Source: Dehalococcoidia bacterium (GTDB lineage: Bacteria > Chloroflexota > Dehalococcoidia > UBA2979). Taken from it: a DNA stretch of 64,000 nt. Under the pieces are notes generated by a model, which did not search any database, had not been told where the DNA came from, and worked only from the letters and a program-made list of their open reading frames with translations. The DNA lies in assembly GCA_965219085.1 (NCBI GenBank), contig OZ244720.1, forward strand, positions 1,120,001 through 1,184,000, written 5' to 3'. The translations under genes were made by a program, and so were the position numbers. Positions 14,301 to 42,543 of the stretch are shown here, piece after piece; position 1 is the stretch's first letter, and the number at the start of each line of letters is the position of its first letter.

Positions 14301-15524
14301 GACGGCACGACCTTCTGGATCACTGAGGCCGGCCCGGACTCCGACGGCGGCGTCTATGCCTACGACCTCGCGAGCGGCGAACGCAGGGAGCGGGCAGAAT
14401 TCGATCTCGATGAGCGGAACCGGGCCCCGCGCGGCCTCTGGTCCAACCGCGAGACGGCCTGGATCTCCAACCACGACCGGAACCGGCTCTACACCTACGA
14501 CCTCGCGAGCGGGGAGCGCGCCGAGCACCGCGACATTGTCCTCGACGCGCGGAACGGCGACGCGCACGGTCTCTGGTCCGACGACGAGACCGTGTGGGTC
14601 GTGGAGGGCGAGAAGGCGGCCCTCTTCGCCTACGATCTCGGGAGCGGCGATTTCCTGGCCGAGTACAGACTCGATTTCGCAAACGACGACCCGCGCGGAG
14701 TCTGGTCCGACGGCGTGACGGTCTGGGTCTCCGACGATGGAGCCAAACGCCTCTTCGCCTACCGCCTGCCCGTGCCGCGGCAGGCCGGGTCGATCAGGCT
14801 CGAGCTCGTCGCAGAGGAGGACTTCGGGGAGCTCTTCCTCTCAGAGGCAAGCAACAACAGCCCGCGCGGCATCTGGTCCGACGGCGGCGTGATGTACGTC
14901 GCGGACGAGCACGACGGCCGCGTCTACAGCTACAACATGCCCGATGCGATCGACGCACGCCTCGCCTCGCTCACGCTCAGCGGCATCGACATCGGCGAGT
15001 TCTCACCCATCAGGAGGGAGTACGCGGCCGTCGCTCCCACCGGGGTCACGGAGACGACGATCGATGCCCGCGTTGAGCAACCCGGGACGAGCGTGGCCAT
15101 CGCGCCCGACGACTCAGACGCCCGCACCAGCGGGTACCAGGTGGCGATCGCGGACGGCGTGGAGGTCACGGTCACCGTGACCTCATCCGACGGGAGCCGG
15201 AAGGGCGTCTACCACGTGCGGATCGCCCCCGGGCCAGCGGCGCCCTGCCTGCGGGGCGCCGTCGCCGTCGGCTTCAGCCTCCTCACCTACGCAGGGGGGA
15301 GCGTCGAGGAGCTGATGTCGTGCGCGGAGGACCGACACGTCACGGCCCTCTATGCCACACGGGACGGCGCCCTCGTTTCCTACATTCTCGGGGCGCCGGA
15401 CCTCGTGAACCGCACCTTCCGCGAGTTCTACGCGGACGGCGTCCCCATCAACACTCCCCTGCTCGCTAAGAGTGACGGCCCGGCCTCGCCCGACACCAAC
15501 GGCGAGGGCGACACTCAACCCTGA
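11328..15524 (+). CDS. Exported cadherin-repeat/Big_9 protein with WSDG beta-propeller, cadherin-like domain and shared C-terminal domain
   Basis: Signal peptide ending AQQARA; PDFESPADANGNNRYEVTV cadherin motifs; repeated PRGxWSDG. Confidence 0.92.
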   Translation: MPRFRAVVGALLALGVLAFAAQQARAQEVDSTAPAFMSARTDTNGENIIVTFSEPVTINPAVTQISDLHNVPVLDLIRGVLSVTIDGSEDLLSGAAVSGSELTIRLTAPGIEAGQAVSVASDTVFARDFVPLFVDADGNAVPLFSSRSVQNLSVIPRGPGVAAGPVVSTNYLRIAEGESERYTVRLPSRPSGDVTVELFVWRLGAIRVEPHQMTFTSSNWNAPQIATVLTDSDDDSQDIWTVILHTRSDASLGRAAAIVRVIVDDENELLRVSGSSTPEYTENASTTVATYVAPWTSGVAWSLSGADSDHFSINKEGDLSFVAPPDHEDPADADADNVYHVGVHASDGSASGFLRVSVTVTDLNEPPDVFGPVGVGVEEDSGTLVGAYTYDDPEDGAARWSLAGSDHHHFTVTNGELHFREAPDFESPADANGNNRYEVTVLAEDGGDLPGKRRVTVSVIDVNEEPSIDGPANVAYAENRTGAVAAFTATDPEQHTILWSLSGAGADDFTITGGVLRFVEAPDYESRADAGGNGAHGVTVQASDGALTATQAVTVTLTDEDEAGALVLSSGQPQVGALLAATHTDADGIVNESWSWARSTNRSDWSAIAGATTDRYTPTGADLRHYVRVTVQYDDGHGPGKSRGSVSDRRVRARPAANRAPEFPSPTAARSLPENAGPGTSVGARVAATDADGDLLRYSLSGPGAETFVIDGARGTIQVAPGRLLNHEAQNSYSVTVTATDPSNSRAAATVTIAIEDVSEAPTAVGDTASTNEGEAASIDVLHNDADPEGDLLTVSLESAPEGGAATVEANGAITYTPRPDHHGPDAFTYSISDGEYSATATVVVNVRAVNHAPAFPTASTVRFVDSRSAARTNVGPPAAAIDQDGDQVTYRLSERAARTFDIDEHTGQIRLRAGTVLDPAERDSYGATVTATDPSGATASINVTITVTEPSRSRSDGPSRPPSGVDFEWTVEHDLDELDAHNEWPTGLWSDGTTFWITEAGPDSDGGVYAYDLASGERRERAEFDLDERNRAPRGLWSNRETAWISNHDRNRLYTYDLASGERAEHRDIVLDARNGDAHGLWSDDETVWVVEGEKAALFAYDLGSGDFLAEYRLDFANDDPRGVWSDGVTVWVSDDGAKRLFAYRLPVPRQAGSIRLELVAEEDFGELFLSEASNNSPRGIWSDGGVMYVADEHDGRVYSYNMPDAIDARLASLTLSGIDIGEFSPIRREYAAVAPTGVTETTIDARVEQPGTSVAIAPDDSDARTSGYQVAIADGVEVTVTVTSSDGSRKGVYHVRIAPGPAAPCLRGAVAVGFSLLTYAGGSVEELMSCAEDRHVTALYATRDGALVSYILGAPDLVNRTFREFYADGVPINTPLLAKSDGPASPDTNGEGDTQP

Positions 15525-15674
15525 ACGGCATGTCGGCGCGGAGCCCCGGCCACGGACTTCCGCACCGAGTCCTACCGGCTGCGTCTCACCACCGCCACGA
15601 AGAGGGTCCGCTGAGGACTCCTCGTCGGCTCGGGCACGCCGGCGCGATGGTTGAGGGCCCGTTGCGTCGATGGC

Positions 15675-16457
15675 TCAGCGGCCGCGGCGGCGCTGGCGCT
15701 GGCCGTACGAGCGGATCGCGCGCAGGAAGTCGATGCGGCGGAACGCCGGCCAGTACGCATCGCAGAAGTAGTACTCGCTGAACGCGCTCTGCCACAGCAT
15801 GAACCCCGACAGCCGCAGCTCCCCCGACGTCCGGATCACGAGGTCCGGATCCGGGATGTCCGGCGCGTACAGGTAGCGTCCGAGCTCGTCAGCGTCGAGG
15901 GCGCGCGCGATGTCCGCGAGCGAGTCGCCGCGCTCGGCGCGGTCGTCCATCATCCGCCGCACCGCGTCGACGATCTCGTCGCGGCCGCCGTAGCCGACGG
16001 CGACGACCAGGTCGCCGTCGCCGTTCCCGGCCGTCGAGCGCTCGACGCGCTCGATCGCCTCGACGGTCGAAGTCGGCAGCAGGTCGCGGCGGCCGACGGC
16101 GCGGATGCGCCGCGGCAGCGCGGCGTGGCGCTGCTGCTCGGCGAGCGCCTCGACGCGCGTCTCGACAATCTCGTAGATGGCGTCGAGCTCGGCGGCGGGG
16201 CGCTGGAAGTTATCGGTCGACAGCACCCAGATCGTGACGACGGGGATGCCGAGTTCGTCGCACCAGGTGATGAGGCGTTCGATGTTGTCCGCGCCGTCGC
16301 GGTGGCCCGCGCCGACGTTCGCGAGGCCCGCGGTGCGCGCGAAGCGGCGGTTGCCGTCCGGGAGCACGCCGACGTGGTGGGGGATCGCGCCGCGGCGCAC
16401 CTCCGCCTCCAGCCGCCCCTCGTAGAAGCGGTAGACGAGCCGGCGCAGCAAGTCCAC
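15675..16457 (-). CDS. uppS: cis-isoprenyl diphosphate synthase (UppS family)
   Basis: HVGVLPDGNRR, LSTDNFQR, YGGRDEI, DPDLVIRTSGELRLSGFMLWQ. Confidence 0.93.
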   Translation of the reverse strand: MDLLRRLVYRFYEGRLEAEVRRGAIPHHVGVLPDGNRRFARTAGLANVGAGHRDGADNIERLITWCDELGIPVVTIWVLSTDNFQRPAAELDAIYEIVETRVEALAEQQRHAALPRRIRAVGRRDLLPTSTVEAIERVERSTAGNGDGDLVVAVGYGGRDEIVDAVRRMMDDRAERGDSLADIARALDADELGRYLYAPDIPDPDLVIRTSGELRLSGFMLWQSAFSEYYFCDAYWPAFRRIDFLRAIRSYGQRQRRRGR

Positions 16458-16487
16458 GCGAGGGCCGTGCGAGGCGCTCCCGCGCGC

Positions 16488-17396
16488 CTACGCGCGCTCC
16501 GCCCGCACGATGAAGCGATCGCGGTACGACTTCGTCGCGACGTCGAACTCGCCGCCGCAGGTGATGAGCGTGATGCTGTCGACCGGCACGTCGCCGCTGA
16601 GGACCGGGAGCCACTCGGCATCGGGGCCGTCCGCCTCGATCTGGCGGGTCCACGTGACCGTGTACTGCAGGACGTTGCCGCCGACCTCCACCTCGATCAC
16701 GTCGCCGGGGGAGAGCAGGCGCAGGCTGAAGAAGACGCCCTGGCCGCGGTAGTTCGCCTCGGCCCACGGGATCGTGTGGTTGTAATCGACGTGGCCGGAG
16801 AACACGGCGTTCTTGCCGCCGCCCGGCACGCCGCCGAGGCCGTCCCACTCCGAGAAGTCGTACCACACGACGTCGCCGGGGCCCGTCGGGTTGGGCATCT
16901 TCGCGCCCACGTAGCGCTGCCCCACCGGCGCGTCGACGCCGAGCACCGGGATGCGCAGCCGCCCGAGCGTCGCGTCCGGCGCCTCGCCGAACAGCCGATG
17001 CAACTCGTCCAGGCTGAACACCGTCGGCGCCCCCGCGGGTTGCGCGGGCGCGGCGACGGCATCGTCGCCGTCGTCGGGCTCGGGCGTCGGCGTGGGGGTG
17101 GGCGTCGGCGTGGCGGTCGGCGTGGGCGTCGCCGCCGGGGGTGGCGTCGCCACGGGCGGCGACGGTGTCGCGGTCGCCGAGGCGGCGACGGCGGGCGGCT
17201 GCGCCTCGGCGGCCGGCGCCACGGACGTGATCACCACGTCCGGGGGGTCGTCGTCGCCGCCTGTGAGGACGAACGTCGCCGCGATCAGGATGCCGGCCAG
17301 CACGCCGGCGACAACGCCGATCGCGGCCCAGCGCGCGAGCGGCGACCTGCTGGATGAGAACAGCGTGTCGAGGAAGCGCGGGCGTTTCGAGGTCAT
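16488..17396 (-). CDS. Class F sortase with N-terminal TM and Pro/Thr linker
   Basis: RLRIPVLGVDAPV, NAVFSGHVD (His), ITLITCGG (Cys), DRFIVRA (Arg). Confidence 0.92.
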   Translation of the reverse strand: MTSKRPRFLDTLFSSSRSPLARWAAIGVVAGVLAGILIAATFVLTGGDDDPPDVVITSVAPAAEAQPPAVAASATATPSPPVATPPPAATPTPTATPTPTPTPTPEPDDGDDAVAAPAQPAGAPTVFSLDELHRLFGEAPDATLGRLRIPVLGVDAPVGQRYVGAKMPNPTGPGDVVWYDFSEWDGLGGVPGGGKNAVFSGHVDYNHTIPWAEANYRGQGVFFSLRLLSPGDVIEVEVGGNVLQYTVTWTRQIEADGPDAEWLPVLSGDVPVDSITLITCGGEFDVATKSYRDRFIVRAERA

Positions 17397-17608
17397 GCGG
17401 GGAGTCCTTCGGTCTCGACCCGGCTGCGCGCGGTCACGCCGCCGGTTCGACTCCCACCACTCGTGACATATCGTTCACGATGCGGCGCGTGCTTGCAACA
17501 CCCATCGTCGCGCCGAACGTACGCTTATCACGATTGTTTGGCTGTAATCCAACCATTGACCCGCTACACTGGCAGCGCACCCGCCCCCACCGACCGAGGG
17601 GAGCAGCG

Positions 17609-17890
17609 ATGGCCTTCGACACCGAGCGCGCAGCCCGCCGGCTCACGGACGCCGGCTTGGACGAACGTGCCGCGAACGGCGTGGCGGACGTTGTGGGCTC
17701 CGCTACCGACGGACTCGCCACCGAGGCGAGCCTCGAGTCCGGCTTGCACGCGCTCGAGACGAGCTTGCTGGAAGTCAAGTCCAGCATCGCGGCGCTCGAG
17801 GCGCGCATCTACCGCGCGCTGTGGCTGCAGGGCATGGGCATCCTCGCCGGCACCGCCGCGATCGTCACCATCATCAACGTGCTCAACTGA
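17609..17890 (+). CDS. DUF1640/CCDC90-like coiled-coil membrane protein, array A copy 1
   Basis: MAFDT head, LATE neck, coiled coil, C-terminal TM. Confidence 0.85.
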   Translation: MAFDTERAARRLTDAGLDERAANGVADVVGSATDGLATEASLESGLHALETSLLEVKSSIAALEARIYRALWLQGMGILAGTAAIVTIINVLN

Positions 17891-17923
17891 CGCACCCGCC
17901 CCCACCGACCGAGGGGAGCAGCG

Positions 17924-18238
17924 ATGGCCTTCGACACCGAGCGCGCAGCCCGCCGGCTCGCTGACGCCGGCTTGGACGAACGCGCCGCCAACGGCGTCGC
18001 CGACGTGGTGGCCAGCGCCACCGACGGACTCGCCACCGAGGCGAGCCTCGAGTCCGGCTTGCACGCGCTCGAGACGAGCTTGCTGGAAGTCAAGTCCAGC
18101 ATCGCGGCGCTCGAGGGCCGCATCGACGCCAGCATCGCGAAGCTTGAGGCGCGCTTCGCTCGCGCGCTGTGGCTGCAGGGCATGGGCATCCTCGCCGGCA
18201 CCGCCGCGATCGTCACCATCATCAACGTCCTCGACTGA
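17924..18238 (+). CDS. DUF1640/CCDC90-like protein, array A copy 2
   Basis: Near-identical to copy 1 plus one extra 11-aa unit. Confidence 0.85.
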   Translation: MAFDTERAARRLADAGLDERAANGVADVVASATDGLATEASLESGLHALETSLLEVKSSIAALEGRIDASIAKLEARFARALWLQGMGILAGTAAIVTIINVLD

Positions 18239-18270
18239 CGCACCCGCCCCCACGAGCGAGGGGAGCAGCG

Positions 18271-18552
18271 ATGGCCTTCGACACCGAGCGCGCAGCCCGC
18301 CGGCTCGCTGACGCCGGCTTGGACGAACGCGCCGCCAACGGCGTGGCGGACGTTGTGGGCTCCGCTACCGACGGACTCGCCACCGAGGCGAGCCTCGAGT
18401 CCGGCTTGCACGCGCTCGAGACGAGCTTGCTGGAAGTCAAGTCCAGCATCGCGGCGCTCGAGGCGCGCATCTACCGCGCGCTGTGGCTGCAGGGCATGGG
18501 CATCCTCGCCGGCACCGCCGCGATCGTCACCATCATCAACGTCCTCGACTGA
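18271..18552 (+). CDS. DUF1640/CCDC90-like protein, array A copy 3
   Basis: Near-identical to copy 1, same GAGGGGAGCAGCG leader. Confidence 0.85.
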   Translation: MAFDTERAARRLADAGLDERAANGVADVVGSATDGLATEASLESGLHALETSLLEVKSSIAALEARIYRALWLQGMGILAGTAAIVTIINVLD

Positions 18553-18584
18553 CGCACCCGCCCCCACGAGCGAGGGGAGCAGCG

Positions 18585-19070
18585 ATGGCCTTCGACACCG
18601 AGCGCGCAGCCCGCCGGCTCACGGACGCCGGCATGGACGAACGCGCCGCCAACGGCGTCGCCGACGTGGTGGCCAGCGCTACCGACGGACTCGCGACCGA
18701 GGCGAGCCTCCAATCCGGCCTGCACGCGCTCGAGACGAGCTTGCTGGAAGTCAGGGCCAGCATCGCCGCGCTCGAAGGCCGCATCGACGCCAGCATCGCG
18801 AAGCTTGAGGGCCGTATCGACGCCAGCATCGCCGCGCTCGAGGGCCGCATCGACGCCAGCATCGCCACGCTCGAGGGCCGTATCGACGCCAGCATCGCCG
18901 CGCTTGAGGGCCGCATCGACGCCAGCATCGCCACGCTCGAGGGCCGTATCGAGGCCAACATCGCGAAGCTAGAGGCGCGCATGATCAAGTGGACCGTCGG
19001 CGCAATCCTCGCCGGAATGAGCGCATCGGCCGCCATCGCCGCGGCCATCGTCCAGCTCATCGGCGGGTGA
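18585..19070 (+). CDS. DUF1640/CCDC90-like protein, array A copy 4 (long stalk)
   Basis: About six 33-bp (ASIAxLEGRID) repeats; different TM tail MIKWTVGAILAG. Confidence 0.85.
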   Translation: MAFDTERAARRLTDAGMDERAANGVADVVASATDGLATEASLQSGLHALETSLLEVRASIAALEGRIDASIAKLEGRIDASIAALEGRIDASIATLEGRIDASIAALEGRIDASIATLEGRIEANIAKLEARMIKWTVGAILAGMSASAAIAAAIVQLIGG

Positions 19071-19075
19071 GCACG

Positions 19076-19363: not shown

Positions 19364-19428
19364 CCGCGGACGCCGCCATGCGGGTCGGGATCGATGCAGC
19401 CTCCTCCCACCACGTCACACGGCACCCC

Positions 19429-19591: not shown

Positions 19592-20203
19592 TTAGTCGAT
19601 GCGGCCCGTCACCGTGCGCGCACCCGCGACGCCGGCAGCAGCCAGCGCGCCGAGCGCGAGGACGAGGAACATCGAGGCCGAACCGGACTCGGTCGCGAGG
19701 CCGGCGTTGCCGTCATCCGGCGGCTCCGGCGTCATGCCGTTCTTGTCGTCGTCCTCGGGCATCGCTGGCGTTGCCTCTGGCGTCGCCTCGGGCATCGCTG
19801 GCGTTGCCTCAGGTGTCGCCTCAGGCGTCTCCACCGGAGGAGGCGGCGCGATGGTCAGCGCGATGACCTGGGCGTCGGACGCGGCCCACGTGGCCGTCTG
19901 CTCGGCGGCCTGGCCGTTGACCTGGAAGGTCACGGTCGCGCCGTCGACGGCGCCGCCGCCACAGTCCTCCTCGTCGACCCAGATGGCCCACTCGCCGGCG
20001 TTGTCGACCTCGGTGGAGTCGCAGACGACGCCGCCGATCAGCGCGGTGATGGTGCCGCCCGCCTCCTGGCCGCCACCGTAGTAGATGGCCTGGGTCGGGC
20101 CCTGCGCGAGCGCGGAGTGCGCACCGAACGCGAGCGGCCCGAGCAGCAGCGCGAGGAGCGCCGCCACGAAGGCGAGCCGCGCGGGTCCCTTCGTCATGTT
20201 CAT
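19592..20203 (-). CDS. Exported surface protein with putative sortase sorting signal
   Basis: Signal peptide; two-Cys domain; PEAT linker; PPDDGNAGL, hydrophobic helix, then RTVTGR. Confidence 0.85.
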   Translation of the reverse strand: MNMTKGPARLAFVAALLALLLGPLAFGAHSALAQGPTQAIYYGGGQEAGGTITALIGGVVCDSTEVDNAGEWAIWVDEEDCGGGAVDGATVTFQVNGQAAEQTATWAASDAQVIALTIAPPPPVETPEATPEATPAMPEATPEATPAMPEDDDKNGMTPEPPDDGNAGLATESGSASMFLVLALGALAAAGVAGARTVTGRID

Positions 20204-20361: not shown

Positions 20362-21378
20362 CTAGCCCTCCATGCCGTTGTCGCCCATGGAGTCGTCCAT
20401 GCCGTCGTCGCCCATGGAGTCATCCATGCCGTCGTCGCCCATGGAGTCTTCCATGCCGTCGTCGCCCATGGAGTCTTCCATGCCGTCGTCGCCCATGGAG
20501 TCTTCCATGCCGTCCATGCCGTAGTTGCAGTCGCTCACGATGACCGCTTCAGGGCCATCGAAGCCGTCGCCGTACGCGCTCATGAACGGGGCGTTGACGA
20601 TGCCGAACTCGGGGTTCGGGACGAACGGCAGGTAGCCCTCGCCGTCCGGCTCGTTGACCCAGATGGTCGAGCTACCGGGGCACACGGCCAGGGCCGCGGC
20701 CTCGAGCTGCTCCACCGAGCCACCGCTGAAGATCGCCAGGCCCTGCGAACCGCTCAGCGACGGAGGCGCGGGCGGAGGCGCGGGCGTCGCTTCGGGCGTT
20801 GCCTCAGGCGTTGCTTCAGGCGTTGCCTCAGGCGTCGCTTCGGGCGTTGCCTCAGGCGTTGCCTCAGGCGTTGCCTCAGGCGTCGCTTCGGGCGTTGCCT
20901 CAGGCGTTGCCTCAGGCGTCGCTTCGGGCGTTGCCTCAGGCGTCGCTTCGGGCGTTGCCTCGGGCGTCGCCTCAGGCGGAGGCGCAGCGGCGACCGTCAG
21001 CGCGATGCCGTGCAACGGGTCGGGCGGCAGGTAGCCGGCCGTCCAGTCCAGGGTCTCAGCAGCGGGGTCGCCGTTGATGGTGAACGTGATGGTCGCGCCT
21101 TCCACGGCGCCACCGTCACAGTCGGCCGGGTGGATCGTAAAGGCCCACTGGCCGTTTGCGGCGGCAGTCATCGTGCCGCACTCCACGTCGCCGATCGAGG
21201 CGGCGATTACGTCACCCTCGGCGACAACGCCTCCGGCTTCGGAGTCGCCGTAGACGTTGGCCGGCGGCGGGGTCACCTGGGCGACCACGGAGCCGGCGTT
21301 GAATGCGAGCGGCACCAGGATGAGCGCGAACAGCGCGGCGACGAACCCGAGAGAGGTCAGTCCCTTCGCATTGCTCAT
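20362..21378 (-). CDS. Exported surface protein, paralog of 19592-20203, with (PEAT)16 linker, shared C-terminal domain and MEDSMGDDG tail
   Basis: Same N-domain (IG.V.C...W...DC.GGAV.GAT.TF..NG) and the same AAGGAGAGACTGAATG leader. Confidence 0.88.
   Translation of the reverse strand: MSNAKGLTSLGFVAALFALILVPLAFNAGSVVAQVTPPPANVYGDSEAGGVVAEGDVIAASIGDVECGTMTAAANGQWAFTIHPADCDGGAVEGATITFTINGDPAAETLDWTAGYLPPDPLHGIALTVAAAPPPEATPEATPEATPEATPEATPEATPEATPEATPEATPEATPEATPEATPEATPEATPEATPEATPAPPPAPPSLSGSQGLAIFSGGSVEQLEAAALAVCPGSSTIWVNEPDGEGYLPFVPNPEFGIVNAPFMSAYGDGFDGPEAVIVSDCNYGMDGMEDSMGDDGMEDSMGDDGMEDSMGDDGMDDSMGDDGMDDSMGDNGMEG
20783..20974. repeat. 16 x 12-bp coding tandem repeat (PEAT)
   Basis: GGCGTYGCYTCR units over 192 bp. 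Confidence 0.92.
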
Positions 21379-21481: not shown

Positions 21482-23416
21482 CTAGCCGCCACAGCCGCCG
21501 ACGAGCAGCGGCTCGTTGGCCGGGACGCCATCCGAGAACAGCGCGTTGAACGGGGCGTTGACCACCTCGACCATCGTGCCCGGGATGAAGGACACGTAGT
21601 TGCCCTGGTAGTCGGTCGCGTACGCCCTGACACCGGCGCCGCAAGCGTCGGTTAGTGCCGTGGCGAGCTCGTCGACCGAGCCGCCCGTGAAGGTCACCAG
21701 GGTGAAACCCTGGGCCGCGGGCTGCTTGCTCAGGCTCGGGGCCGCCGGAGGCGGCACAACCACCTCAACCGGCTCAGAGCCAGTGTTCAGCTCGAGGACG
21801 TGCTGGACGCGCGCGTCACCCTTGCCTGCACGGATCCGGAAGACCGCCGTGCCCTCGCTGAGCGGGGCCGTGTAGGTGAACTTCCCAATACCGTTGGTGG
21901 TCGTGACGGAACCGTCGGTGATGCCCTCAATGAGGCCATCGCCCTGGACCTTCAGGACCTCAACGGTCGTCTCGCCGACAAGGACGCCCTCGTCGTCGCG
22001 GACCGTGATGATGACCTCGTTGTCGCTCAGCGGCACAAGGTACGAACCAGTGGCCGGGCTGGTCTCGAGGGACGACGGCGCACCGGCGACCTCGATCTCA
22101 ACCGAAGCCTCAAGGTCGCCCAGCACGAAGTTAATCGTGTGCACGCCACGGGCCGATGCCTCGTTGTCAGCCGTTCCCGCGACATCCGGGGTGGCCGTCA
22201 CCTCGACGACACACTGGCCGTCGTCGTTCGTGCCGGTCGACGCGAATACGCCCACGACTGGGTCAGGAGTCTGGTCAGGAATGGCCACGACCTCGGTCAC
22301 AGGACCACAAGCCGGGATGTCGCCCTTCTCGATCTCGCCCTGGGTCTTCTTGTCCTTGTTGACGTTGTAGGCGCCGTCCTCGTCCACAGCCGTGGTGACG
22401 AGGTTAGAGTCATCCTCCGGGCCTACGACTTCTTCGTCACCCGCCTCCGGCTGCACACCCTTGACCGGGTTGTCCGCACCGTCGGTGACGGTCAGGACCA
22501 CGAAGACCGATCCGCCGACCTCGATCGAGTCCTGCTCGGCCTCGGCCACGAGGTTCTTCGCATCGCCGAACAGGGTGACCTCGAGCGTCTGGGCGTCGAG
22601 GGTCCCGTGGGTCACCGTGATGGTCGCAGTGCCCTCGCGGTTACCACCGGTCAGCGTGACAACGGCGTTACCGTCGGCACCGGTGTCCCCGGTGAAGTTG
22701 CTCGTGCTCGTCCAGACCTGGCACCACTGCACGTTCTGAGCGGCCGCGATGTTGGTCGGGTTCACGCCCGACGCCGGGCAGTTCAGCGTGCCGAGCGTGG
22801 TGATGAACGTGATGCGCTCATCGTTCATACCATCCTTGGTCTTCTGGTTGTTCGTGACGGTCGCACGAATCTGCGTGGAGCCACCAGCAGCACTGCCGTC
22901 AGCATTGATCGTCGTTGACGCTGCCTTCACCGCCAGCCTGGCCGGCTTCGGCTCCGTCGTGACCGTGATGACCACGGTCGTACTGGTCTCGGTAGTGGGC
23001 ACCGCCAAAGTGTCGGTGAGGACGATGGTGTACCTCAAGATGATGAACCCGTCGGCCGAGTCCTCATCGACGTTCAGCTTAACCTGAACGGAGCCATCAA
23101 TGTCTGCATTGTCCCCGTCGACGCCAGTGTCACAACTACCGTCGTCGCTACAGGCGAGCGTCTGGTCGCCGCCCGATGCGAAGCTACCGGTCGACGTGCT
23201 GTTCTCCCCGTCGATCGTGAACCGTACGATCTCCGCATTGGCAACAGTAATGACCGCTGTGTCGCCTGGCTCGACCTTCGCCGTGTTGGTGCCCCCCACT
23301 ATGACGTCCTTGGCCTCGACGGTTGTCGGGGAGGACGTGATCAGCACAGCGAACGCGACCGCGAATGCGGCGGCGATCACGAGTGCGGATGCGCCTAGCT
23401 TTCGTACGTAACTCAA
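21482..23416 (-). CDS. Ig-like (Big_1-type) repeat surface protein, S-layer candidate, with shared C-terminal domain
   Basis: TTG start after GAAGAGAG; signal peptide; acidic T/V/G-rich beta domains; codon usage visibly less GC3-biased than neighbours. Confidence 0.82.
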   Translation of the reverse strand: MSYVRKLGASALVIAAAFAVAFAVLITSSPTTVEAKDVIVGGTNTAKVEPGDTAVITVANAEIVRFTIDGENSTSTGSFASGGDQTLACSDDGSCDTGVDGDNADIDGSVQVKLNVDEDSADGFIILRYTIVLTDTLAVPTTETSTTVVITVTTEPKPARLAVKAASTTINADGSAAGGSTQIRATVTNNQKTKDGMNDERITFITTLGTLNCPASGVNPTNIAAAQNVQWCQVWTSTSNFTGDTGADGNAVVTLTGGNREGTATITVTHGTLDAQTLEVTLFGDAKNLVAEAEQDSIEVGGSVFVVLTVTDGADNPVKGVQPEAGDEEVVGPEDDSNLVTTAVDEDGAYNVNKDKKTQGEIEKGDIPACGPVTEVVAIPDQTPDPVVGVFASTGTNDDGQCVVEVTATPDVAGTADNEASARGVHTINFVLGDLEASVEIEVAGAPSSLETSPATGSYLVPLSDNEVIITVRDDEGVLVGETTVEVLKVQGDGLIEGITDGSVTTTNGIGKFTYTAPLSEGTAVFRIRAGKGDARVQHVLELNTGSEPVEVVVPPPAAPSLSKQPAAQGFTLVTFTGGSVDELATALTDACGAGVRAYATDYQGNYVSFIPGTMVEVVNAPFNALFSDGVPANEPLLVGGCGG

Positions 23417-32596: not shown

Positions 32597-33772
32597 GGAA
32601 GGTCTGAACAGGTGGCGTATCGGGCGCGGTGCGGGCCGATCGGCGTCCCGAGCCGCGCTGCGGGGGCCGATGCCGCGGTTCAGGGGGCGATCCCGCCCCG
32701 ATTCCGCTTCGGGATCGCCTGCGGGAGCGATTCCGGACGCAGCGCTCCCGCGATCAGGCGAGTTGAGGCTCGGCTCGCAACAGGTTCGTGAAGCCGAGCA
32801 GCAGCATGAGACGCTGGCGGTTCTTCTCAAGACCCCGGTAGCGGACCTGCGCGTACCCGAAGTGCCGCTTCACGTAGAGAAACGGATGCTCAGCCTTGGC
32901 GCGCACCGAGGCCTTGCGCCGCTCCGCCTGCGCCTCCTCGCCCCCCGGCGCCAGCTGCCGCCTGAGACCCGGACGCAGCGCCACCTGCCAGCTCACCTCC
33001 GACCCCGCGTGCTCCGGGCGCTTCTCCACTCCCTGGTAGCCGGCGTCGCCCCACGCCTCCGTCTCGCCCCCGTGCAAGAGGCGATGCGCCTCGGTCACGT
33101 CGGAGACGTTCGCCGCCGTCGTGCTCACGCTGTGGACCAGCCCCGTCCGCGCATCCGTGCCGGTGTGCAGCTTCATCCCGAAGTACCACTGCCGGCCCTT
33201 GCTGGTCTGGTGCATCTCGGGGTCGCGCGCACGCTCGCGGTTCTTCGTCGATGACGGCGCGCTGATGATCGTGGAGTCCACGATCGTGCCCTCGCGCACC
33301 TGCAGACCCTGCCGTGCCAGGTGCGCGTTGATCGTCGCGAACAGCGCCGTTCCCAGCTGATGGCGCTCCAGCAGGTGGCGGAAGTTGAGGATCGTCGTCT
33401 CATCGGGAATCGGCTCGGAGAGGCTGAGACCGGCGAACTCGAGCATCGAGCGGGAGTCGTAGAGTTCCTGCTCCATGCCGGGGTCGCTGAGGTTGAACCA
33501 GAGCTGCAGGCAGTGGATGCGCAGCATCACGCGCAGCGCGTAGGGGCGGCGTCCGCGGCCGCGCTTCGGGTAGACGGGCGCGATGCGCTGCTCCAGCTCA
33601 GCCCAGGGGACGAGCCCGTCCATGCGCTCGAGGAACGCCTGCCGCCTCGTCTTGACCTTCTTGTGCTCGTACTCGACGCTGCCGAACGAACGCTGCTGCA
33701 TGGGCCGCCCCTCTCCGGGTCGCCCCATGATCGCATCTGCTCACCCGCTCAGGCGAGTTGTTCAGACCATCC
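32597..33772 (-). mobile_element. IS5 family element
   Basis: IRs GGAAGGTCTGAACA / TGTTCAGACCATCC; TTAG duplicated at 32593 and 33773. Confidence 0.96.
32754..33701 (-). CDS. IS5 family transposase
   Basis: IPDETTILNFRHLL, GTIVDSTII, WYFGMKLH, WGDAGYQG, RAKAEHPF. Confidence 0.96.
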   Translation of the reverse strand: MQQRSFGSVEYEHKKVKTRRQAFLERMDGLVPWAELEQRIAPVYPKRGRGRRPYALRVMLRIHCLQLWFNLSDPGMEQELYDSRSMLEFAGLSLSEPIPDETTILNFRHLLERHQLGTALFATINAHLARQGLQVREGTIVDSTIISAPSSTKNRERARDPEMHQTSKGRQWYFGMKLHTGTDARTGLVHSVSTTAANVSDVTEAHRLLHGGETEAWGDAGYQGVEKRPEHAGSEVSWQVALRPGLRRQLAPGGEEAQAERRKASVRAKAEHPFLYVKRHFGYAQVRYRGLEKNRQRLMLLLGFTNLLRAEPQLA

Positions 33773-34640: not shown

Positions 34641-35822
34641 GTGAGTACCGTGACCAGCGCCACACTCCGCCTCGCTCGCGGCGCGCTCGCCGACCCCCTG
34701 CACGCTCGCGGTACGCTCGCAGGCCTCGCGCTCGTGGCCGCCGTCCTCGTGGCCTCATGCGGCGCCGGCGACGACGTGGGCGTCGCGCCCGACGGCTCCG
34801 TCACCCCGCAACGCGAACTGACGGGGCTGACCGCCTGGCTCAACTCGGAGCCCCTCACGATCGCCGCGGAGCTCGAGCAGGGCCGCGTCGTGCTCGTCGA
34901 CTTCTGGACCTACACCTGCATCAACTGCATCCGCACGCTGCCTTACCTGCGCGAGTGGCACGAGAAGTACGCCGGCAGCGGCCTCGTCATCGTCGGCGTG
35001 CACGCCCCGGAGTTCGACTTCGAGCACGAGGCAGACAACGTGCTGGCGGCGATGGACCGCCTCGGCGTCGCATGGCCGGTGGCGCAGGACAACGACTTCC
35101 GCACGTGGCGCGCGTTCGAGAACCGCTTCTGGCCCGCCAAGTACCTGTTCGGCGTCGACGGCCGCATCCGCTACTCGCACTTCGGGGAGGGCGACTACCT
35201 CGAGACCGAGGAGGAGATCCGCGCCGCGCTCACCGAGGCCGGTCACGACGTGAGCGCGATCCAGCTCGGCAGCGCCGCACCCGCCCGGGACCCCGACGCC
35301 GGCGCGCAGACCCGCGAACTCTACGGCGGCTACGAGCGCAACTACAGCCCTCGCGGCCTCTACGCCGCGCAGGACGAGTATTACGCCGCCCCGGACCTCG
35401 AGCTTGAGTACGAGGACATCGACACCACCAGGGGCGAACGCGACCACAATCGCTGGTACCTGCAGGGGCTGTGGCGCAACGAGCGCGAGGCGATCGTCCA
35501 CGCGCGCACGACGTCGAACTTCGACGACTACTTCGCGCTCCGCTTCGTCTCGCGCAGCGTGAACGTCGTGCTCAACCCGCCGCCGGGTGAGCCGTTCACC
35601 GTGGTGATCGAGCTCGATGGCCGCGCACTCAACCGCGAGGAGGCGGGCGCGGACATCACGTACGACGAGGCGGGCCGCAGCATCATCGTTGTGACCGAGC
35701 CGCGCGCGTATGCGATCGTGGAACTGCCCGAGTGGGGCGACCACGAGCTCAAGCTGCGCTCCAACTCAGACCACTTCGCGATCTTCGCTCTCACCTTCGG
35801 CAACTACCTGGAGGGCGCATGA
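34641..35822 (+). CDS. DipZ-like thioredoxin lipoprotein (no DsbD/CcdA domain)
   Basis: Lipobox VASC; LVDFWTYTCINC, GVHAPEF, WPAKY, HFGEG. Confidence 0.9.
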   Translation: MSTVTSATLRLARGALADPLHARGTLAGLALVAAVLVASCGAGDDVGVAPDGSVTPQRELTGLTAWLNSEPLTIAAELEQGRVVLVDFWTYTCINCIRTLPYLREWHEKYAGSGLVIVGVHAPEFDFEHEADNVLAAMDRLGVAWPVAQDNDFRTWRAFENRFWPAKYLFGVDGRIRYSHFGEGDYLETEEEIRAALTEAGHDVSAIQLGSAAPARDPDAGAQTRELYGGYERNYSPRGLYAAQDEYYAAPDLELEYEDIDTTRGERDHNRWYLQGLWRNEREAIVHARTTSNFDDYFALRFVSRSVNVVLNPPPGEPFTVVIELDGRALNREEAGADITYDEAGRSIIVVTEPRAYAIVELPEWGDHELKLRSNSDHFAIFALTFGNYLEGA

Positions 35823-37315
35823 CCACCCCGACCCACGACACCGCGCGGCGTCGCGGACGCCTCACCTCGTGGGGCGGCGCGCTGACGCTGCTGGCGCTGC
35901 TCGCAGGCCTCGTCGCCTTCGCCTGCACGAGTGACGATGAGCCGGCGCCGGAGGCTACGAGCACGCCGCGCGCCAGCACCCCGGCGAGGGCGACGCCTCG
36001 CCCCGCGACGCCAACCGCGACCCCAACCCCGACTCCTACCCCGACGGAGGCGGCGCGGCGCGACATGACCTCCTCGACGCAGCGGACAACCCCCACCGCT
36101 ACGCCGACGCCGCCCCCGGCGGCAACGGCCACGCCGCCGCTCGCGGCGACACCCCGGCCGGCCACCGCTACCCCGACGCCAAGGCCCCGACCCGCGACTG
36201 CCACACCGACCCCTGTGACGGCGCGACCCACCGCCACGCCCACCCCGCGACCTACGCCGACCCCCACTCCGACGCCCACGCCCGAGCCGCCGCGCGTGAC
36301 GCCCGAGGTCGAGGTCACGGGGCTTGGCCGGTGGTTCAACTCGGAGCCGTTCACCATCGGCGAACAGCTGTCGGCCGGGAACGCCGTGCTGATCGACTTC
36401 TGGACGTACACCTGCATCAACTGCGTGCGCACCCTGCCCTACCTGCGCGACTGGCACGACAAGTACGCCGAGCACGGCCTCGTGATCCTCGGCGTGCACC
36501 GCCCCGAGTTCGCCTTCGAGCACAACGCCGACAACGTCGAGGCCGCGATCGAGCGGTTGGACGTGGCCTGGGCGGTCGCGCAGGACAACAACTCCCGCAC
36601 CTGGCGCGCGTTCAACAACCGTTACTGGCCGGCCAAGTACCTCTTCGACACGACCGGGAAGATCGTCTACAACCACTTCGGCGAGGGCCGGTACATCGAG
36701 ACCGAACGCCAGATCCGCGCGGCCCTCACCCGTGCCGGCCGCGACGTAAGCAGCGTACCATTCGGCCGCGGCGACCAGGCGCGCGATCCGGAGCGCCGGA
36801 ACCAGACCCGCGAGCTCTACGGCGGCTATGGCCGCAACTACGGCAGCGTCCAGTACGCCGCCCAGCATGAGTACTACCTCGGCGGGGACCGCGTCGTGGA
36901 GTACGAGGACATCGACACCTCGACGACGTCACGCCAGAACCACAAGTGGTACCTGCAGGGACTGTGGCGCAACGAGCGCGAACAGATCGTGCATGCGCGG
37001 GAGACCACGAACCTGGAGGACTACTTCGCGTTCCTCTTCCGCGCGCGCAGCGTGAACGTGGTCCTCGATCCGCCCACCGGGACGTCTTACGACGTGTACA
37101 TCAAGATCGACGGCAGGCCGCTCACCGAGAGCGAAGCCGGAGCCGACGTAGAGTTCGACGCGGCGGGGAACAGCCTCATCCGCGTCAGCGAGCCACGCCA
37201 CTACGCCATCATCGAGTTGCCCGAGTTCGGCGAGCACGACCTGCAGCTCGCCTCGAACTCCGGCAAGTTCGGGATCTTCGCTCTCACCTTCGGGAGCTAT
37301 CTGGAGGGGCCATGA
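35819..37315 (+). CDS. Second DipZ-like thioredoxin lipoprotein with long Pro/Thr linker
   Basis: Lipobox AFAC; LIDFWTYTCINC; ATGA overlap with upstream paralog. Confidence 0.9.
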   Translation: MTTPTHDTARRRGRLTSWGGALTLLALLAGLVAFACTSDDEPAPEATSTPRASTPARATPRPATPTATPTPTPTPTEAARRDMTSSTQRTTPTATPTPPPAATATPPLAATPRPATATPTPRPRPATATPTPVTARPTATPTPRPTPTPTPTPTPEPPRVTPEVEVTGLGRWFNSEPFTIGEQLSAGNAVLIDFWTYTCINCVRTLPYLRDWHDKYAEHGLVILGVHRPEFAFEHNADNVEAAIERLDVAWAVAQDNNSRTWRAFNNRYWPAKYLFDTTGKIVYNHFGEGRYIETERQIRAALTRAGRDVSSVPFGRGDQARDPERRNQTRELYGGYGRNYGSVQYAAQHEYYLGGDRVVEYEDIDTSTTSRQNHKWYLQGLWRNEREQIVHARETTNLEDYFAFLFRARSVNVVLDPPTGTSYDVYIKIDGRPLTESEAGADVEFDAAGNSLIRVSEPRHYAIIELPEFGEHDLQLASNSGKFGIFALTFGSYLEGP

Positions 37316-38412: not shown

Positions 38413-38507
38413 GCCCGCCGCCGATTGCCCGGCAGCGCGCGCCGTCGCTGTAGCCTTCGCTGCGCACGCCGCGCCCCGGCCGGGGCGCGGCGAACGGCGA
38501 GGGCTCG

Positions 38508-39737
38508 ATGACCACCACGCGCCAGGACGACACCGCCACCGCCGGGATGTTCGACTCGTTCCGGGCGCCCGGGTTCCTCCGCGCGTGGATCGGCGCGGTG
38601 CTGTTCGCCCTCGGCATCTGGATCGAGCGGCTCGCGATCGGCTGGTTCGTCCTCGACGTGACGGGCTCGGTGTTCCTCGCCGCGCTCTCGCTCGGCATCC
38701 GCTCGATCCCCAACCTCATCCTCGGCCCCGTCGGCGGGGCGGTCTCCGACCGGCTGCCGCGCGGCCGCGTGCTCATGGTCACTTCGCTCGTGCGCGCGGT
38801 GGCGGCGGCGCTCATGGCCGTCGTCGTGGTCATCGACGTGGCGACGGTGCCGCTGCTGCTCGCGCTGGTGTTCGTGACGGCCTCGACGCTCGCGTTCCAC
38901 AACACCTCGTTGCAGCCGCTGCAGGTGGAGCTGGCCGGGCCCGAACGCCTGGGCAGCGCGATCAGCCTCACGTCCTTCGGGCAGCGCTCCGTCGGCGCGG
39001 CCGGGGCGCTCGGCGGTGGCGTGCTCATCGGCACACTCGGCCCCGCGCCCACGTTGATCGTCGCCGCGCTCCCGCTCGCGTTGGCCACGGCGGTCTTCGC
39101 CCGCCTCCCCTCGCCCGCGAAGTCGCCTGTGACGCGCCCGCACCTGGCACGCGACGTGCTCGATGGCCTCCGCCTGCTCGCGCGCACGCCGACGATTCGC
39201 CTGCTGCTCGGGATGATGATCGTCATCGAGATCCTCGGCTTCTCGTTTGCGAGCCTGCTCCCGGCGGTCGCGGAACGGGTGCTCGAGGTGGGACCGGAGC
39301 GCCTCGGCGTGCTCACGGCGGGGATGGCCGTGGGCGCGATGTTCGGTACGGCGCTGCTGGTGGTGACGGCAGACCGGCTGCCACGCGGACCGATGCTGGT
39401 GACCGTGTTCGTGACGTTCGGGGTGCTCGTGGTGGTGCTGGGCAACTCGGATGTGTTCTGGCTCTCCGTCGCCGCCACCGCCGGCATCGGCGCGTCGGCC
39501 GCGATGGTCGACTCGCTCGAGTGGATCATGCTGCAGGCGAGCGTGCACGCCGATGTGCGCGGGCGCGCCCTCGGCGGGTGGAACTTCGCGATCGGCTGGG
39601 GCTGGCTGGGCCCGCTCAGCCTCGGCGCCATCGCCGACGCGACGAGCGTGCCGGCGGCGCTGACGTTGAGCGGGGCGTTGCTCGTGGTGTTCGCATTCGC
39701 GGCGCTCGCCGCCTCGGCGACGCTGCGCGAGCGGTGA
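38508..39737 (+). CDS. MFS transporter
   Basis: About 12 TM; GGAVSDRLPRGRVL motif A. Confidence 0.92.
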   Translation: MTTTRQDDTATAGMFDSFRAPGFLRAWIGAVLFALGIWIERLAIGWFVLDVTGSVFLAALSLGIRSIPNLILGPVGGAVSDRLPRGRVLMVTSLVRAVAAALMAVVVVIDVATVPLLLALVFVTASTLAFHNTSLQPLQVELAGPERLGSAISLTSFGQRSVGAAGALGGGVLIGTLGPAPTLIVAALPLALATAVFARLPSPAKSPVTRPHLARDVLDGLRLLARTPTIRLLLGMMIVIEILGFSFASLLPAVAERVLEVGPERLGVLTAGMAVGAMFGTALLVVTADRLPRGPMLVTVFVTFGVLVVVLGNSDVFWLSVAATAGIGASAAMVDSLEWIMLQASVHADVRGRALGGWNFAIGWGWLGPLSLGAIADATSVPAALTLSGALLVVFAFAALAASATLRER

Positions 39738-39774
39738 AGCAACCCATGATACGCTCCCAATCGCAAGGAGTTGA

Positions 39775-42543
39775 ATGCAGCACTACCTTCTTGCTCGATC
39801 CTGGCGCCGGGCGGCGCTCGCGGCCCTGCTAGCTATGAGCGTCATCTCAATTCAGAGTGGCCAGCTCAACGCGCAGGAGCCGCCCACCAACAATGCGGCT
39901 ACAGGCACCCCCACCCTCATCGGCCCGCTCCGGGTCGGTGCAGTCCTGCGCGTGGACACCTCCTCGATCGTGGACACCGACGGTCTCACGAACCCGAGCT
40001 TCAGCTACACCTGGCTCGCAGATGACGATCTCCTCGAGCCGGGTGCCTTTCTTCGGGCCTTGTCGTCTGTCAACGAGTACCCGGTCGCGCCGTACGACGC
40101 CGGGCTGACAATCAAAGTGCAGGTGCATTTCGAGGACGACAACGGCAACAGGGAATCCCTCGATGTAGAAGCGACAAGCACCGTCGCCGCTGTGGCGCCG
40201 GACGCGCCACCGAACCTCAGCGCCTCGCTGGGTGACCCCGGCGAGCTTGACCTGAGCTGGTCGACCCCTGCGGTCTGTGACTTCACCCTTGTCTTCGACT
40301 GCTGGCTCGACCTCGACCGAACGTTCAGCGTTGGAGACGGCGGTTCAGACATCACCGGCTACACGGTGCAATGGAAGCTGGCGTCTGGAAGCTGGGGCGT
40401 CGCGTCCAATGTCTCCGAAGCGGAGGTGACGACGACGTCCCATACCGTCACCGGGCTGAGCGCGAGCAGTACGTACACCGCGCGCGTGCTCGCACGAAAT
40501 GCAGTCGGCGCGGGCACTCCTTCGACCGAGGTGACAGTCAGCGACACCAACCTCAACGTGGGGCCGGTCGTCTCAGGAAGGGCGGCGCCAAGCTTCTTTG
40601 AGACCAACCCAAGGGACGTAGAGACGTATACCGCGACCGATCCCGAGAGCGACACCATCACCTGGTCGCTCTCGGGTCCCGATGCAAGCTTCTTCAGCAT
40701 CGCCGACGGTGTGCTCAATTTCGATTCCGCCGGGGACTATGAGGACCCGAGGGACGCTGACCGGAACAACGCGTATGAGGTGACCATCCATGCGTTCGAC
40801 GGGGCGAACAGCGCGGTTTTCCCCGTCACCGTCGTCATCAACGAGGTTGATGAGCGTCCTGTCATCGCTGGGCCCGCCAGTGTGAATGTCAGGGGAGGCA
40901 CGACGGCCTACGTGGGCCGCTACGGCGCAACCGACCCGGAAGGATTCGTGACAAGCTGGGAGCCGCTTTCGGGCGTGGACGCACAACACTTCGAGTTCTC
41001 CGATGCCGGAGACCTGAGCTTCACCGCCGTGCCCGACTTCGATAGTCCGGCCGACACCAACGGCGACAACAGGTATGAGGTCACAGTCAGCGCTTCGTCC
41101 GACGGCGATCGGGGAACGCGGACTGGAACGTTGGACGTGGTAATCACTGTCACGGATCCGAACCAGCCGATCAGGCCACCGATCATCATCCCAGGAGGAG
41201 GTGGCGGCGGCGGGGGCGGCTCGCGCGGCCCGACCCCGAGCGAGGCCGACTACGAGTGGACCGTGAAGCACGACATCGATGAGCTCGACGGCGGCAATGA
41301 CGAGCCCACCGGTACCTGGTCCAACGGCACGACGCTCTGGGTGGCCGACAATCCGAACGGCGCCGGGGACGCCGTTTACGCCTACGACCTCGCCAGCGGC
41401 AAACGGGTCGAGGAGCTGGAGTTCGAGCTTGACGAGACGAACCGCGCCCCGCGCGGAGCCTGGTCAGACAAGGAGACCATCTGGATCCCCGACAGCGGCC
41501 AGGAGCGGCTCTTCGCCTACGACCTCGCCACGGGAGAGCGGCTCAAGGACCGCGACATCGAGCTTGCCGAGCGCAATGACGATCCTCGCGGCATCTGGTC
41601 CGACGGCGTCACGATGTGGGTGCTCGACAATCGCCGTGACGCACTGTTCGCGTACGACCTCGGGACGGGTGAGTTGCTTGCCGAGTACGCCCTCGACTCC
41701 GCGAACAGTCAGCCGCACGGCATCTGGTCCGATCGCTTCACCGTCTGGGTCTCCAACCACGACCCCAAGCGCCTCTTCGCCTACCGGCTGCCAACTCCCG
41801 ACGCCGAGGACGCTGATGAGCTCGTCGAGCTTGAGCGTGTCACGGACGAGGAGTTCACGAAGCTGAGCCGCGCCAGCAACAACAGCCCGCGCGGCATCTG
41901 GTCCGACGGCGAGGTGATGTACGTCGCCGACCGGAGCGACGACAAGGTCTACAGCTACAACATGCCGGATGCGATCGACGCCCGCCTCGCCTCGCTCGAG
42001 CTCGCGGGCGTCGACTTCGGCGAGTTCTCGCCGCTGCTCTACGACTACGCCAGCGACACCGTCCCGCACGGCAACATCGCCACCCTCACGGTCACTCCGG
42101 CCCAACCCGGCGCCTCCCTGGAGATACGCCCGCCAGACCACGACGGCGACGAAGCGAACGGGCACCACGTGCGGTTGATCCCGGGGCTCGAGATCACCGT
42201 CACCGTCACCTCGCCGGACGGGAGCCGCATGCGCGTCTACCGGCTGCTCCTCGGCGACGAGGAGGCGACCGGCCCACCTCTCGACTGCCTGCGCGACATC
42301 GTCGGCGCGCGCTTCAGCCCCGTCACGTACGAGGGCGGCGCCGTCACCGATCTTGAGGCGTGCGCGAGCGGTCTCGACGTCATCTCGCTGTACGCCCTCG
42401 ACGCCGACGGGAAGTACGTGTCGTACATCCTCGGCGCGCCGGAGTTCGTGAACCGCGCGTTCGTGGCGCTGTTCCCGGACGGCGTCCCGGCCGACACGCC
42501 GATGATCGCCCAGCGCGCCAGCCCCGACGACGAAGGCTCCTGA
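39775..42543 (+). CDS. Exported fibronectin III/cadherin protein with WSDG beta-propeller and shared C-terminal domain
   Basis: AAGGAG RBS; signal peptide; DGGSDITGYTVQW fn3 motif; cadherin motifs; PRGIWSDG repeats. Confidence 0.92.
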   Translation: MQHYLLARSWRRAALAALLAMSVISIQSGQLNAQEPPTNNAATGTPTLIGPLRVGAVLRVDTSSIVDTDGLTNPSFSYTWLADDDLLEPGAFLRALSSVNEYPVAPYDAGLTIKVQVHFEDDNGNRESLDVEATSTVAAVAPDAPPNLSASLGDPGELDLSWSTPAVCDFTLVFDCWLDLDRTFSVGDGGSDITGYTVQWKLASGSWGVASNVSEAEVTTTSHTVTGLSASSTYTARVLARNAVGAGTPSTEVTVSDTNLNVGPVVSGRAAPSFFETNPRDVETYTATDPESDTITWSLSGPDASFFSIADGVLNFDSAGDYEDPRDADRNNAYEVTIHAFDGANSAVFPVTVVINEVDERPVIAGPASVNVRGGTTAYVGRYGATDPEGFVTSWEPLSGVDAQHFEFSDAGDLSFTAVPDFDSPADTNGDNRYEVTVSASSDGDRGTRTGTLDVVITVTDPNQPIRPPIIIPGGGGGGGGGSRGPTPSEADYEWTVKHDIDELDGGNDEPTGTWSNGTTLWVADNPNGAGDAVYAYDLASGKRVEELEFELDETNRAPRGAWSDKETIWIPDSGQERLFAYDLATGERLKDRDIELAERNDDPRGIWSDGVTMWVLDNRRDALFAYDLGTGELLAEYALDSANSQPHGIWSDRFTVWVSNHDPKRLFAYRLPTPDAEDADELVELERVTDEEFTKLSRASNNSPRGIWSDGEVMYVADRSDDKVYSYNMPDAIDARLASLELAGVDFGEFSPLLYDYASDTVPHGNIATLTVTPAQPGASLEIRPPDHDGDEANGHHVRLIPGLEITVTVTSPDGSRMRVYRLLLGDEEATGPPLDCLRDIVGARFSPVTYEGGAVTDLEACASGLDVISLYALDADGKYVSYILGAPEFVNRAFVALFPDGVPADTPMIAQRASPDDEGS

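Follow-up and report, generated by a model that had tools for sequence, protein, structure and literature searches.

The question raised by the locus described here is what role a small, unnamed domain plays at the C-terminus of several exported proteins. The locus is a window of 64,000 nt (the whole stretch of DNA that was analysed, in which all feature coordinates listed below are counted) on contig OZ244720.1 of a Dehalococcoidia bacterium from the phylum Chloroflexota, the genome of which is a single contig of 3.306 Mb with a G+C content of 69.8%. Four open reading frames (ORFs) of the window, here named A to D, each contain one copy of this C-terminal domain of about 75-85 residues, as found by translation and alignment. 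Judged from sequence, the domain is, with a probability of roughly 55%, a non-covalent envelope-binding module, most simply one for peptidoglycan or a wall polymer. The four genes and their domain copies are as follows:

11328-15524, plus strand: gene A, 1398 aa, a predicted secreted cadherin / Big_9 repeat protein that ends in a cassette (described below) and one domain copy
15246-15470, plus strand: domain copy A, type 1, with a cysteine at position 1 and another in helix 1
20362-21378, minus strand: gene B, 338 aa, predicted to be secreted, with a small N-terminal domain, a PEAT linker (about 20764-20988), the domain and an acidic repeat tail (20365-20526)
20527-20763, minus strand: domain copy B, type 2, with a cysteine after helix 1 and another at the C-terminal end; the most divergent copy
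21482-23416, minus strand: gene C, 644 aa, predicted to be secreted, without a Pfam domain, the domain standing at its C-terminus
21485-21739, minus strand: domain copy C, with type 2 cysteines
39775-42543, plus strand: gene D, 922 aa, a predicted secreted fn3 / cadherin-like protein that ends in a cassette and one domain copy
42286-42516, plus strand: domain copy D, with type 1 cysteines

All four ORFs contain the motif G(F)xLxx(F/Y)xGGxVxxL ... (Y/W) ... G.(Y)(V)(S)(Y/F)I.G ... VN..F ... (F/Y).DG(V)P, and the positions L, GG.V..L, G, VN..F and DG are invariant in the alignment of the copies. A profile made solely of 13 out-of-window copies, its E-values scaled to the genome's 29,610 ORFs, matched copies A (E 2.3e-33), D (E 4.9e-31) and C (E 1e-11), and copy B at only E 0.2. 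Copy B is joined to the family through copy C (BLASTP 2e-12, 35% identity over 84 columns) and through a comparison with the type 1 profile by hhalign (88%, E 2.9e-6), so that the likeness of the four copies goes beyond chance. The shared C-terminal domain on four exported proteins that the original prediction had claimed is therefore real; its coordinates for A and D could be kept, while copy B moves from about 20525-20745 to 20527-20763 and copy C from about 21485-21712 to 21485-21739.

By eye and by hydropathy score, the N-termini of all four proteins resemble Sec signal peptides, with a basic start, a hydrophobic core and a cleavage site of the A-x-A type, and none of them has a lipobox cysteine. 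Their C-terminal tails contain no hydrophobic segment and are short, polar or acidic: 17 residues follow the domain in A, 8 in D and 2 in C, while in gene B the domain is followed by a 54-residue acidic repeat of the MGDDGMEDS type. This is what had been claimed for all four, namely signal peptides without a transmembrane tail or a lipobox.

The domain has no counterpart among named families, as had been supposed. In searches with the whole window proteins, Pfam gave no match over the domain, the cadherin, Big_9, fn3 and Cadherin-like matches all lying upstream of it (in gene A Cadherin at E 9.3e-32, Big_9 at E 3.3e-29 and Cadherin-like PF12733 at E 1.9e-7), and 32 isolated copies searched at E up to 10 yielded scattered single chance matches only. 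NCBIfam has no match to the domain, a profile search of the Protein Data Bank (PDB) sequences gave asparaginyl ligases at a chance-level E of 0.63 as its best result, and a full-text literature search, which did not cover supplements, found no description of it. A P-type ATPase N domain (PF13246) was proposed by ESM Atlas with a cosine of 0.93 on only 131 shared features, and was rejected as it is absent from the Pfam matches of the 32 copies.

The AlphaFold2 model of copy A, made with an alignment of 32 rows, is confident, with a predicted local distance difference test score (pLDDT) of 96.1 and a predicted template modelling score (pTM) of 0.84. It consists of a strand (residues 11-15), a helix (20-29), two strands (34-39 and 42-47), a second helix (52-61) and a last strand (70-74), which gives the order beta-alpha-beta-beta-alpha-beta. 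Foldseek found nothing in the PDB for this model at E up to 0.001, and no clear fold match stood among the Foldseek and VIA-align matches listed. The type 1 cysteines are those of A, D and the giant proteins described below, and the type 2 cysteines those of B, C and L034, an fn3 protein elsewhere in the genome; in sequence, both patterns would fit a disulfide that staples an exported domain. The confident model, together with the unrelated N-terminal parts that precede the domain in B and C, suggests that the domain folds independently. By function it would belong with the wall-binding modules, as a new family that possibly also has a new fold.

Four proteins turned out to be far too few. A profile from the window copies found 82 places in the genome, and hmmsearch counted 81 copies in 45 stop-to-stop ORFs, which together comprise 94,989 residues or 8.6% of the genome. 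Two copies are found in 29 of these ORFs, one in 14, three in one and six in one. About forty giant surface proteins of the genome carry the domain, most of its copies standing as a tandem pair near the C-terminus of giant secreted cadherin/Ig-repeat proteins. In 35 of the 45 ORFs the protein ends within 17 residues of the last copy; the exceptions include gene B with its acidic tail, a frame of 8473 aa whose six copies are all internal, and two proteins that resemble enzymes. The C-terminal bias is thus strong in this genome, but the domain is not intrinsically C-terminal, being internal in enzymes. The expected co-occurrence with signal peptides was found as well, since about 30 of the 39 domain-bearing ORFs with a length of 300 aa or more begin in a way that resembles a signal peptide by eye and hydropathy.

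In the two cadherin-like window proteins, the domain is preceded by a cassette:

14220-15242, plus strand: cassette of gene A, 341 aa, five-bladed beta-propeller repeats followed by a cadherin-like beta-sandwich, directly before the domain
41242-42282, plus strand: cassette of gene D, propeller repeats and a cadherin-like sandwich

The cassette of gene A is matched by 33 of the 45 domain-bearing ORFs, where the match mostly covers the whole cassette and stops right before the first domain copy, and 54 ORFs on 77 related loci combine a complete cassette with exactly two terminal copies; the search for these loci used one peptide pattern and reaches close relatives only. A model of a paralogous tail (552 aa, alignment of 60 rows, pLDDT 80.5, pTM 0.56, linkers of low confidence) shows the order beta-propeller, Cadherin-like PF12733 sandwich and two domain copies. 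The propeller of the paralogous cassette model resembles five-bladed glutaminyl cyclases (Foldseek TMt 0.74-0.75). In the cassettes of A and D, the propeller repeats (WSDG.T.WV.D ... Y.YDL.(S/T)GE) have no Pfam name, a short and probably spurious match to NCH3 aside, which makes the cassette a second conserved module without a name. The domain also occurs without it, in B, C and L034, which shows that the domain is an independent module.

Beyond the genome itself, a library of 1.84 billion representatives yielded 1404 matches at a threshold of E 0.001, of which 454 reach 1e-10 and 145 reach 1e-30. Among the best 150 of the 1404, in a ranking by summed score that favours two-copy proteins, 135 contain the domain twice, and 119 end no more than 20 residues beyond their last copy. 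None of these best 150 shows a membrane-like segment downstream of that copy, so that no second anchor is visible in them. An N-terminal hydrophobic stretch is present in 49 of 95 representatives with a length of 800 aa or more, as compared with 3 of 475 internal control windows. The named relatives from the one-pattern search for related loci are metagenome-assembled genomes labelled Dehalococcoidia, Tepidiformaceae, Chloroflexi or Chloroflexota, with one bin (two short contigs) labelled Gammaproteobacteria. In an even sample of the class, in which at most 14 candidates per genome were scored so that the figures are not copy numbers, 34 of 401 genomes match the domain: 24 of 25 in the family of the host, 7 of 25 and 2 of 25 in two others, and none in the remaining sampled families. 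In a sample across the phylum, the host genome alone was matched (1 of 401). Among the genomes sampled, the domain is therefore found only in three families of Dehalococcoidia.

The domain also recurs off the C-terminus, inside wall-active enzymes and beside a classical wall-binding domain. ORF 2057340-2059280 (minus strand) of the genome begins with a signal peptide and an SH3b-like region, after which come a copy of the domain that lacks cysteines (97.1% and E 5e-11 over 68 columns against the type 1 profile in hhalign) and a D-Ala-D-Ala carboxypeptidase of the Peptidase_S11 family (E 1.5e-56). Its domain region is common to 14 proteins, including its own entry at 100% identity, and PF00768 is found in all 14 and SH3_3 in 5 of them. 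In a second ORF of the same genome, 2655695-2657044, SH3_3 is combined with two partial copies, both with the YVSYIPGAPAFVN core retained, and the 3D domain is matched weakly (E 0.0014). A profile of the enzyme type matches 31 of the 401 genomes, in the same three families as the adhesin type. The partners were counted in 21 domain ORFs from 20 regions around the best matches outside the host genus: Peptidase_S11 occurs in 9, of which 8 have SH3_3 too, and in another 4 SH3_3 is the sole partner; CAP is found in 2, and a BD-FAE esterase, a beta-helix and a TPR protein with an SLT lytic transglycosylase in one each, with no Pfam partner in the remaining 3. SH3_3 is thus present in 12 of the 21, in a region separate from the domain. 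That the domain lies internally in peptidoglycan enzymes speaks for non-covalent wall binding and against a sorting signal at the C-terminus.

A further argument comes from the paralogue of gene B, listed here with the sortase gene close to it:

19592-20203, minus strand: paralogue of gene B in which a hydrophobic helix and a basic C-terminal tail, together resembling a sorting signal, take the place of the domain
16488-17396, minus strand: sortase-domain gene, PF04203 at E 1.4e-14 and 54.4 bits (cut-off 26.6)
15675-16457, minus strand: undecaprenyl-diphosphate synthase gene uppS, PF01255 at E 1.8e-69, an envelope-synthesis neighbour

The paralogue and gene B share 50% identity over 140 residues, PEAT linker included, and the former ends in ...GLATESGSAS, a hydrophobic helix and ARTVTGRID. 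The common N-terminal domain and linker and the exchange of domain for tail were correctly seen in the original prediction, while the tail it took for a sortase-type signal resembles one but has no canonical LPXTG motif. One other ORF of the genome has such a tail (VLATERDSGAS, helix, ARAVTGRRRR), and sorting-signal-like tails number only a handful in the genome as compared with 45 domain-bearing frames. The sortase gene lies 2.2 kb from the paralogue and beside uppS. It was overlooked by the whole-genome family search, a false negative which makes the other negatives of that search for short or divergent families weak.

Taken together, these results lead to the following model. The domain would be an independently folding, disulfide-stapled extracytoplasmic alpha/beta unit of a lineage-specific, unnamed family, which would tether Sec-exported proteins non-covalently to the envelope of the cell that makes them, through peptidoglycan or a polymer attached to it. 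After export and cleavage of the signal peptide, the domain at the C-terminus would adhere to the wall, as a single anchor in the four window proteins and as a tandem pair in the giants, with the variable cadherin, Ig and fn3 repeats of the N-terminal part projecting outward. In the enzymes, a cysteine-free form may target proteins of the DD-carboxypeptidase and lytic transglycosylase types to their substrate, alongside SH3b. Wall binding is favoured because a constant, autonomous and often duplicated module ends dozens of putatively Sec-exported proteins without another retention signal, because a membrane tail stands in for it in the paralogue of gene B, because the module recurs in wall enzymes, and because the organism makes peptidoglycan, the genome having three penicillin-binding protein (PBP) transpeptidase matches. 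The tandem pairs add to this. Such pairs are usual in non-covalent wall binders like SLH, CWB2, LysM and GW, so that multivalency supports anchoring. The non-covalent anchor of the original prediction thus stands as a probable role, with the C-terminal bias, the signal peptides, the tail of the paralogue and the copies in wall enzymes as circumstantial evidence on its side, while its confinement to four proteins and to the C-terminus does not.

As for the envelope itself, passages of a report on cultured Tepidiforma, a member of the same class, describe a monoderm cell with a membrane, 20-30 nm of peptidoglycan and a surface layer (S-layer), and no outer membrane (PMC10284905). By this evidence for its class, the host would be a monoderm as well, with a wall to which the domain could bind.

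Several observations weigh against wall binding. The adhesin-type copies are acidic, with a median isoelectric point (pI) of 4.3 (n=72), while the pI of the enzyme type ranges from 6.5 to 10.6, which means that the ligands of the two types may differ. The partner census was drawn with a profile of the DD-carboxypeptidase copies and is biased toward those enzymes. In 9 of the 39 large domain ORFs no signal peptide lies within the open frame; these are possibly decayed or frameshifted genes. Lastly, the cassette of propeller and sandwich, present in most giants, could itself be the anchor.

Among the alternatives, the one that survives best, though it is unlikely, is that of a docking module which binds the S-layer or another surface protein in the style of dockerin and cohesin, and not a wall polymer. 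Passages of the Tepidiforma report describe unexplained protein complexes on both faces of the S-layer of these cultured relatives (PMC10284905). The domain is acidic, like many parts of S-layers, and a restriction to three families is what would be expected of a lineage-specific protein partner. On the other hand, the 108 regions downstream of domain genes contain no recurrent partner gene, and the copies in peptidoglycan enzymes beside SH3b fit a wall ligand better.

Next in rank, and improbable, is an adhesive or self-association tip that binds the matrix of a host (a sponge), other cells or itself. The carriers are cadherin, fn3 and Ig repeat proteins typical of adhesins, and the record names of related contigs suggest sponge-metagenome bins. 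However, the ligand-specific tip of a variable family is seldom its most conserved and constant part, the same domain is found in housekeeping wall enzymes, and no other retention element would be visible in these proteins after cleavage of the signal peptide. A homodimer prediction of the single-copy form, with scores of 0.12 and 0.00 as compared with a mark of 0.42, bears neither way.

Still more doubtful is a structural cap or folding nucleus without a ligand, which would protect or nucleate very long repeat proteins. This would suit a compact, confidently predicted and probably disulfide-stapled fold that is conserved at the ends of such proteins, yet the domain is also found on proteins as small as B (338 aa) and between the domains of enzymes, where a cap makes little sense. 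The last alternative, a C-terminal sorting or secretion signal that a dedicated machine recognises and perhaps removes, as in type IX secretion (T9SS) or CTERM/sortase systems, accords with the extreme C-terminal position in most ORFs and with a recurrent terminal asparagine (below) but is very unlikely, since the domain is internal in enzymes and six times in the 8473-aa frame, tandem duplication is no feature of such signals, no recurrent processing-enzyme gene lies nearby, and Sec signal peptides already seem to be present in what would be a monoderm.

Wall binding by the domain, which is preferred here, can be compared with known systems. Like SLH (PF00395), CWB2 (PF04122), LysM, SH3b (PF08239), SPOR (PF05036), GW and the choline-binding repeats, the domain is a small, autonomous and putatively extracytoplasmic module, often in tandem, which is used by many unrelated secreted carriers in one organism and is placed at one end of surface proteins or beside the catalytic domains of wall hydrolases. 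It differs from all of these in that it has no sequence match to them and none among the listed structure matches, in that its adhesin form is acidic and has the putatively stapling cysteines, and in its limitation to three Dehalococcoidia families. The profiles of CWB2, LysM, SH3b, SPOR and PG_binding do not match over the domain, and SLH was found neither on five window proteins nor on the 32 isolated copies at E up to 10; in the whole genome no SLH was found either, a weak negative from the search that overlooked the sortase. With SPOR, the model of copy A shares its order of secondary structure elements, although no SPOR entry stands among the structure matches listed. RCK / TrkA_C-type and other small ferredoxin-like alpha/beta domains gave scores in the uninformative range of the tool and are cytoplasmic ligand sensors.

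The comparison with covalent and sorting systems is of another kind. Sortase substrates with LPXTG have the same logical role at the C-terminus, and the window has both a sortase gene and a sorting-signal-like paralogue, but the domain is a folded unit of 75 aa in place of a motif, a hydrophobic helix and a basic tail. The T9SS C-terminal domain, PEP-CTERM and PGF-CTERM are likewise conserved C-terminal elements on many large secreted proteins, whereas the domain has a predicted alpha/beta fold, as opposed to a beta-sandwich or a single helix, and occurs in tandem and sometimes internally. The T9SS C-terminal domain itself was ruled out by the alpha/beta model and the internal copies, no search for T9SS genes having been made. 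No exosortase (PF09721) was found in the genome, at a completeness of 92.7% and by the type of search that overlooked the sortase, and the domain proteins have no motif-and-helix tail.

A feature of the family in its own right is the terminal asparagine, the last encoded residue in 21 of 32 ORFs of the genome that end in the domain, as compared with 16 of 1726 background ORFs. Examples are G000:C1:318061-329403, 346096-355335 and 1924167-1935110, and the tails of such ORFs include EGPPEAN, EGPAAAN and ...DRDGSASN. The asparagine is also found in 37 of the 119 library representatives with short tails and in none of the window proteins A to D. This residue could be a recognition or modification site, and may mark an additional attachment or recognition step.

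Some carriers depart from the usual architecture. The frame of 8473 aa (G000:C1:1867596-1893017, minus strand) has its six copies as three pairs, with 637 residues after the last, and appears to have arisen from several tails by fusion or recombination. In the library representatives P0075, P0091, P0130 and P0148 an extra tail of 92-204 residues follows the tandem pair and ends in a sequence like W-S-W-V-(H/R)-(L/E)-R-(Y/F)-L; this tail is possibly a further unnamed module. Downstream of domain genes, the 108 regions contain the next giant gene (49), a regulator-like ORF (14) or a methylase-like ORF (13) as recurring elements, and transposases too; a recurrent processing gene was not seen in them.

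Gene C has 24 relatives besides itself, of 412-685 aa (mostly 625-685), all 'hypothetical' and from related metagenome genomes. A precomputed Pfam domain is present in none of the 25 proteins including gene C, which is a conserved single-copy surface protein and possibly a component of an envelope layer. The remaining genes of interest in the window are:

3275-7726, plus strand: leucine-rich repeat (LRR) and RCC1-repeat protein of 1483 aa
30447-31268, plus strand: transposase gene of the rve integrase-core type, between domain-bearing genes
32754-33728, minus strand: transposase gene of the DDE_Tnp_1 type, between domain-bearing genes
34641-35822 and 35732-37315, both plus strand: two adjacent redoxin / Thioredoxin_10 proteins, just upstream of a major facilitator superfamily (MFS) transporter and gene D
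49526-55912, plus strand: bacterial alpha-2-macroglobulin of 2128 aa
56663-59140, plus strand: von Willebrand factor A (vWF-A) protein, downstream of an extracytoplasmic function (ECF) sigma factor

The redoxin / Thioredoxin_10 pair are possibly extracytoplasmic thiol-disulfide enzymes, which is of interest given a domain that appears to be stapled by cysteines. The LRR/RCC1, alpha-2-macroglobulin and vWF-A genes are further large genes of a eukaryote-like or surface type.

The display of proteins on the monoderm envelopes of Chloroflexota is almost unknown, and most sponge-associated members of the phylum are uncultured. What is added here are the single-copy and type 2 forms of the domain, the sortase neighbour, the distribution at the level of families and the context of wall enzymes. 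An extension of the model, tentative and rated at somewhat below an even chance, is that a new peptidoglycan- or wall-binding fold arose in the wall enzymes of one Dehalococcoidia lineage and was later recruited, with disulfides and duplication added, as the universal handle of recombining giant adhesins that make up about one twelfth of the genome. If the domain does anchor proteins, the surface proteome of a symbiont would become predictable from sequence, and the domain would offer a handle for labelling or capturing cells. The few wall-binding modules listed for bacteria would gain a further family, possibly one with a fold of its own. Anchoring would also explain how a genome of 3.3 Mb comes to give 8.6% of its DNA to exchangeable giant adhesins on one constant tail.

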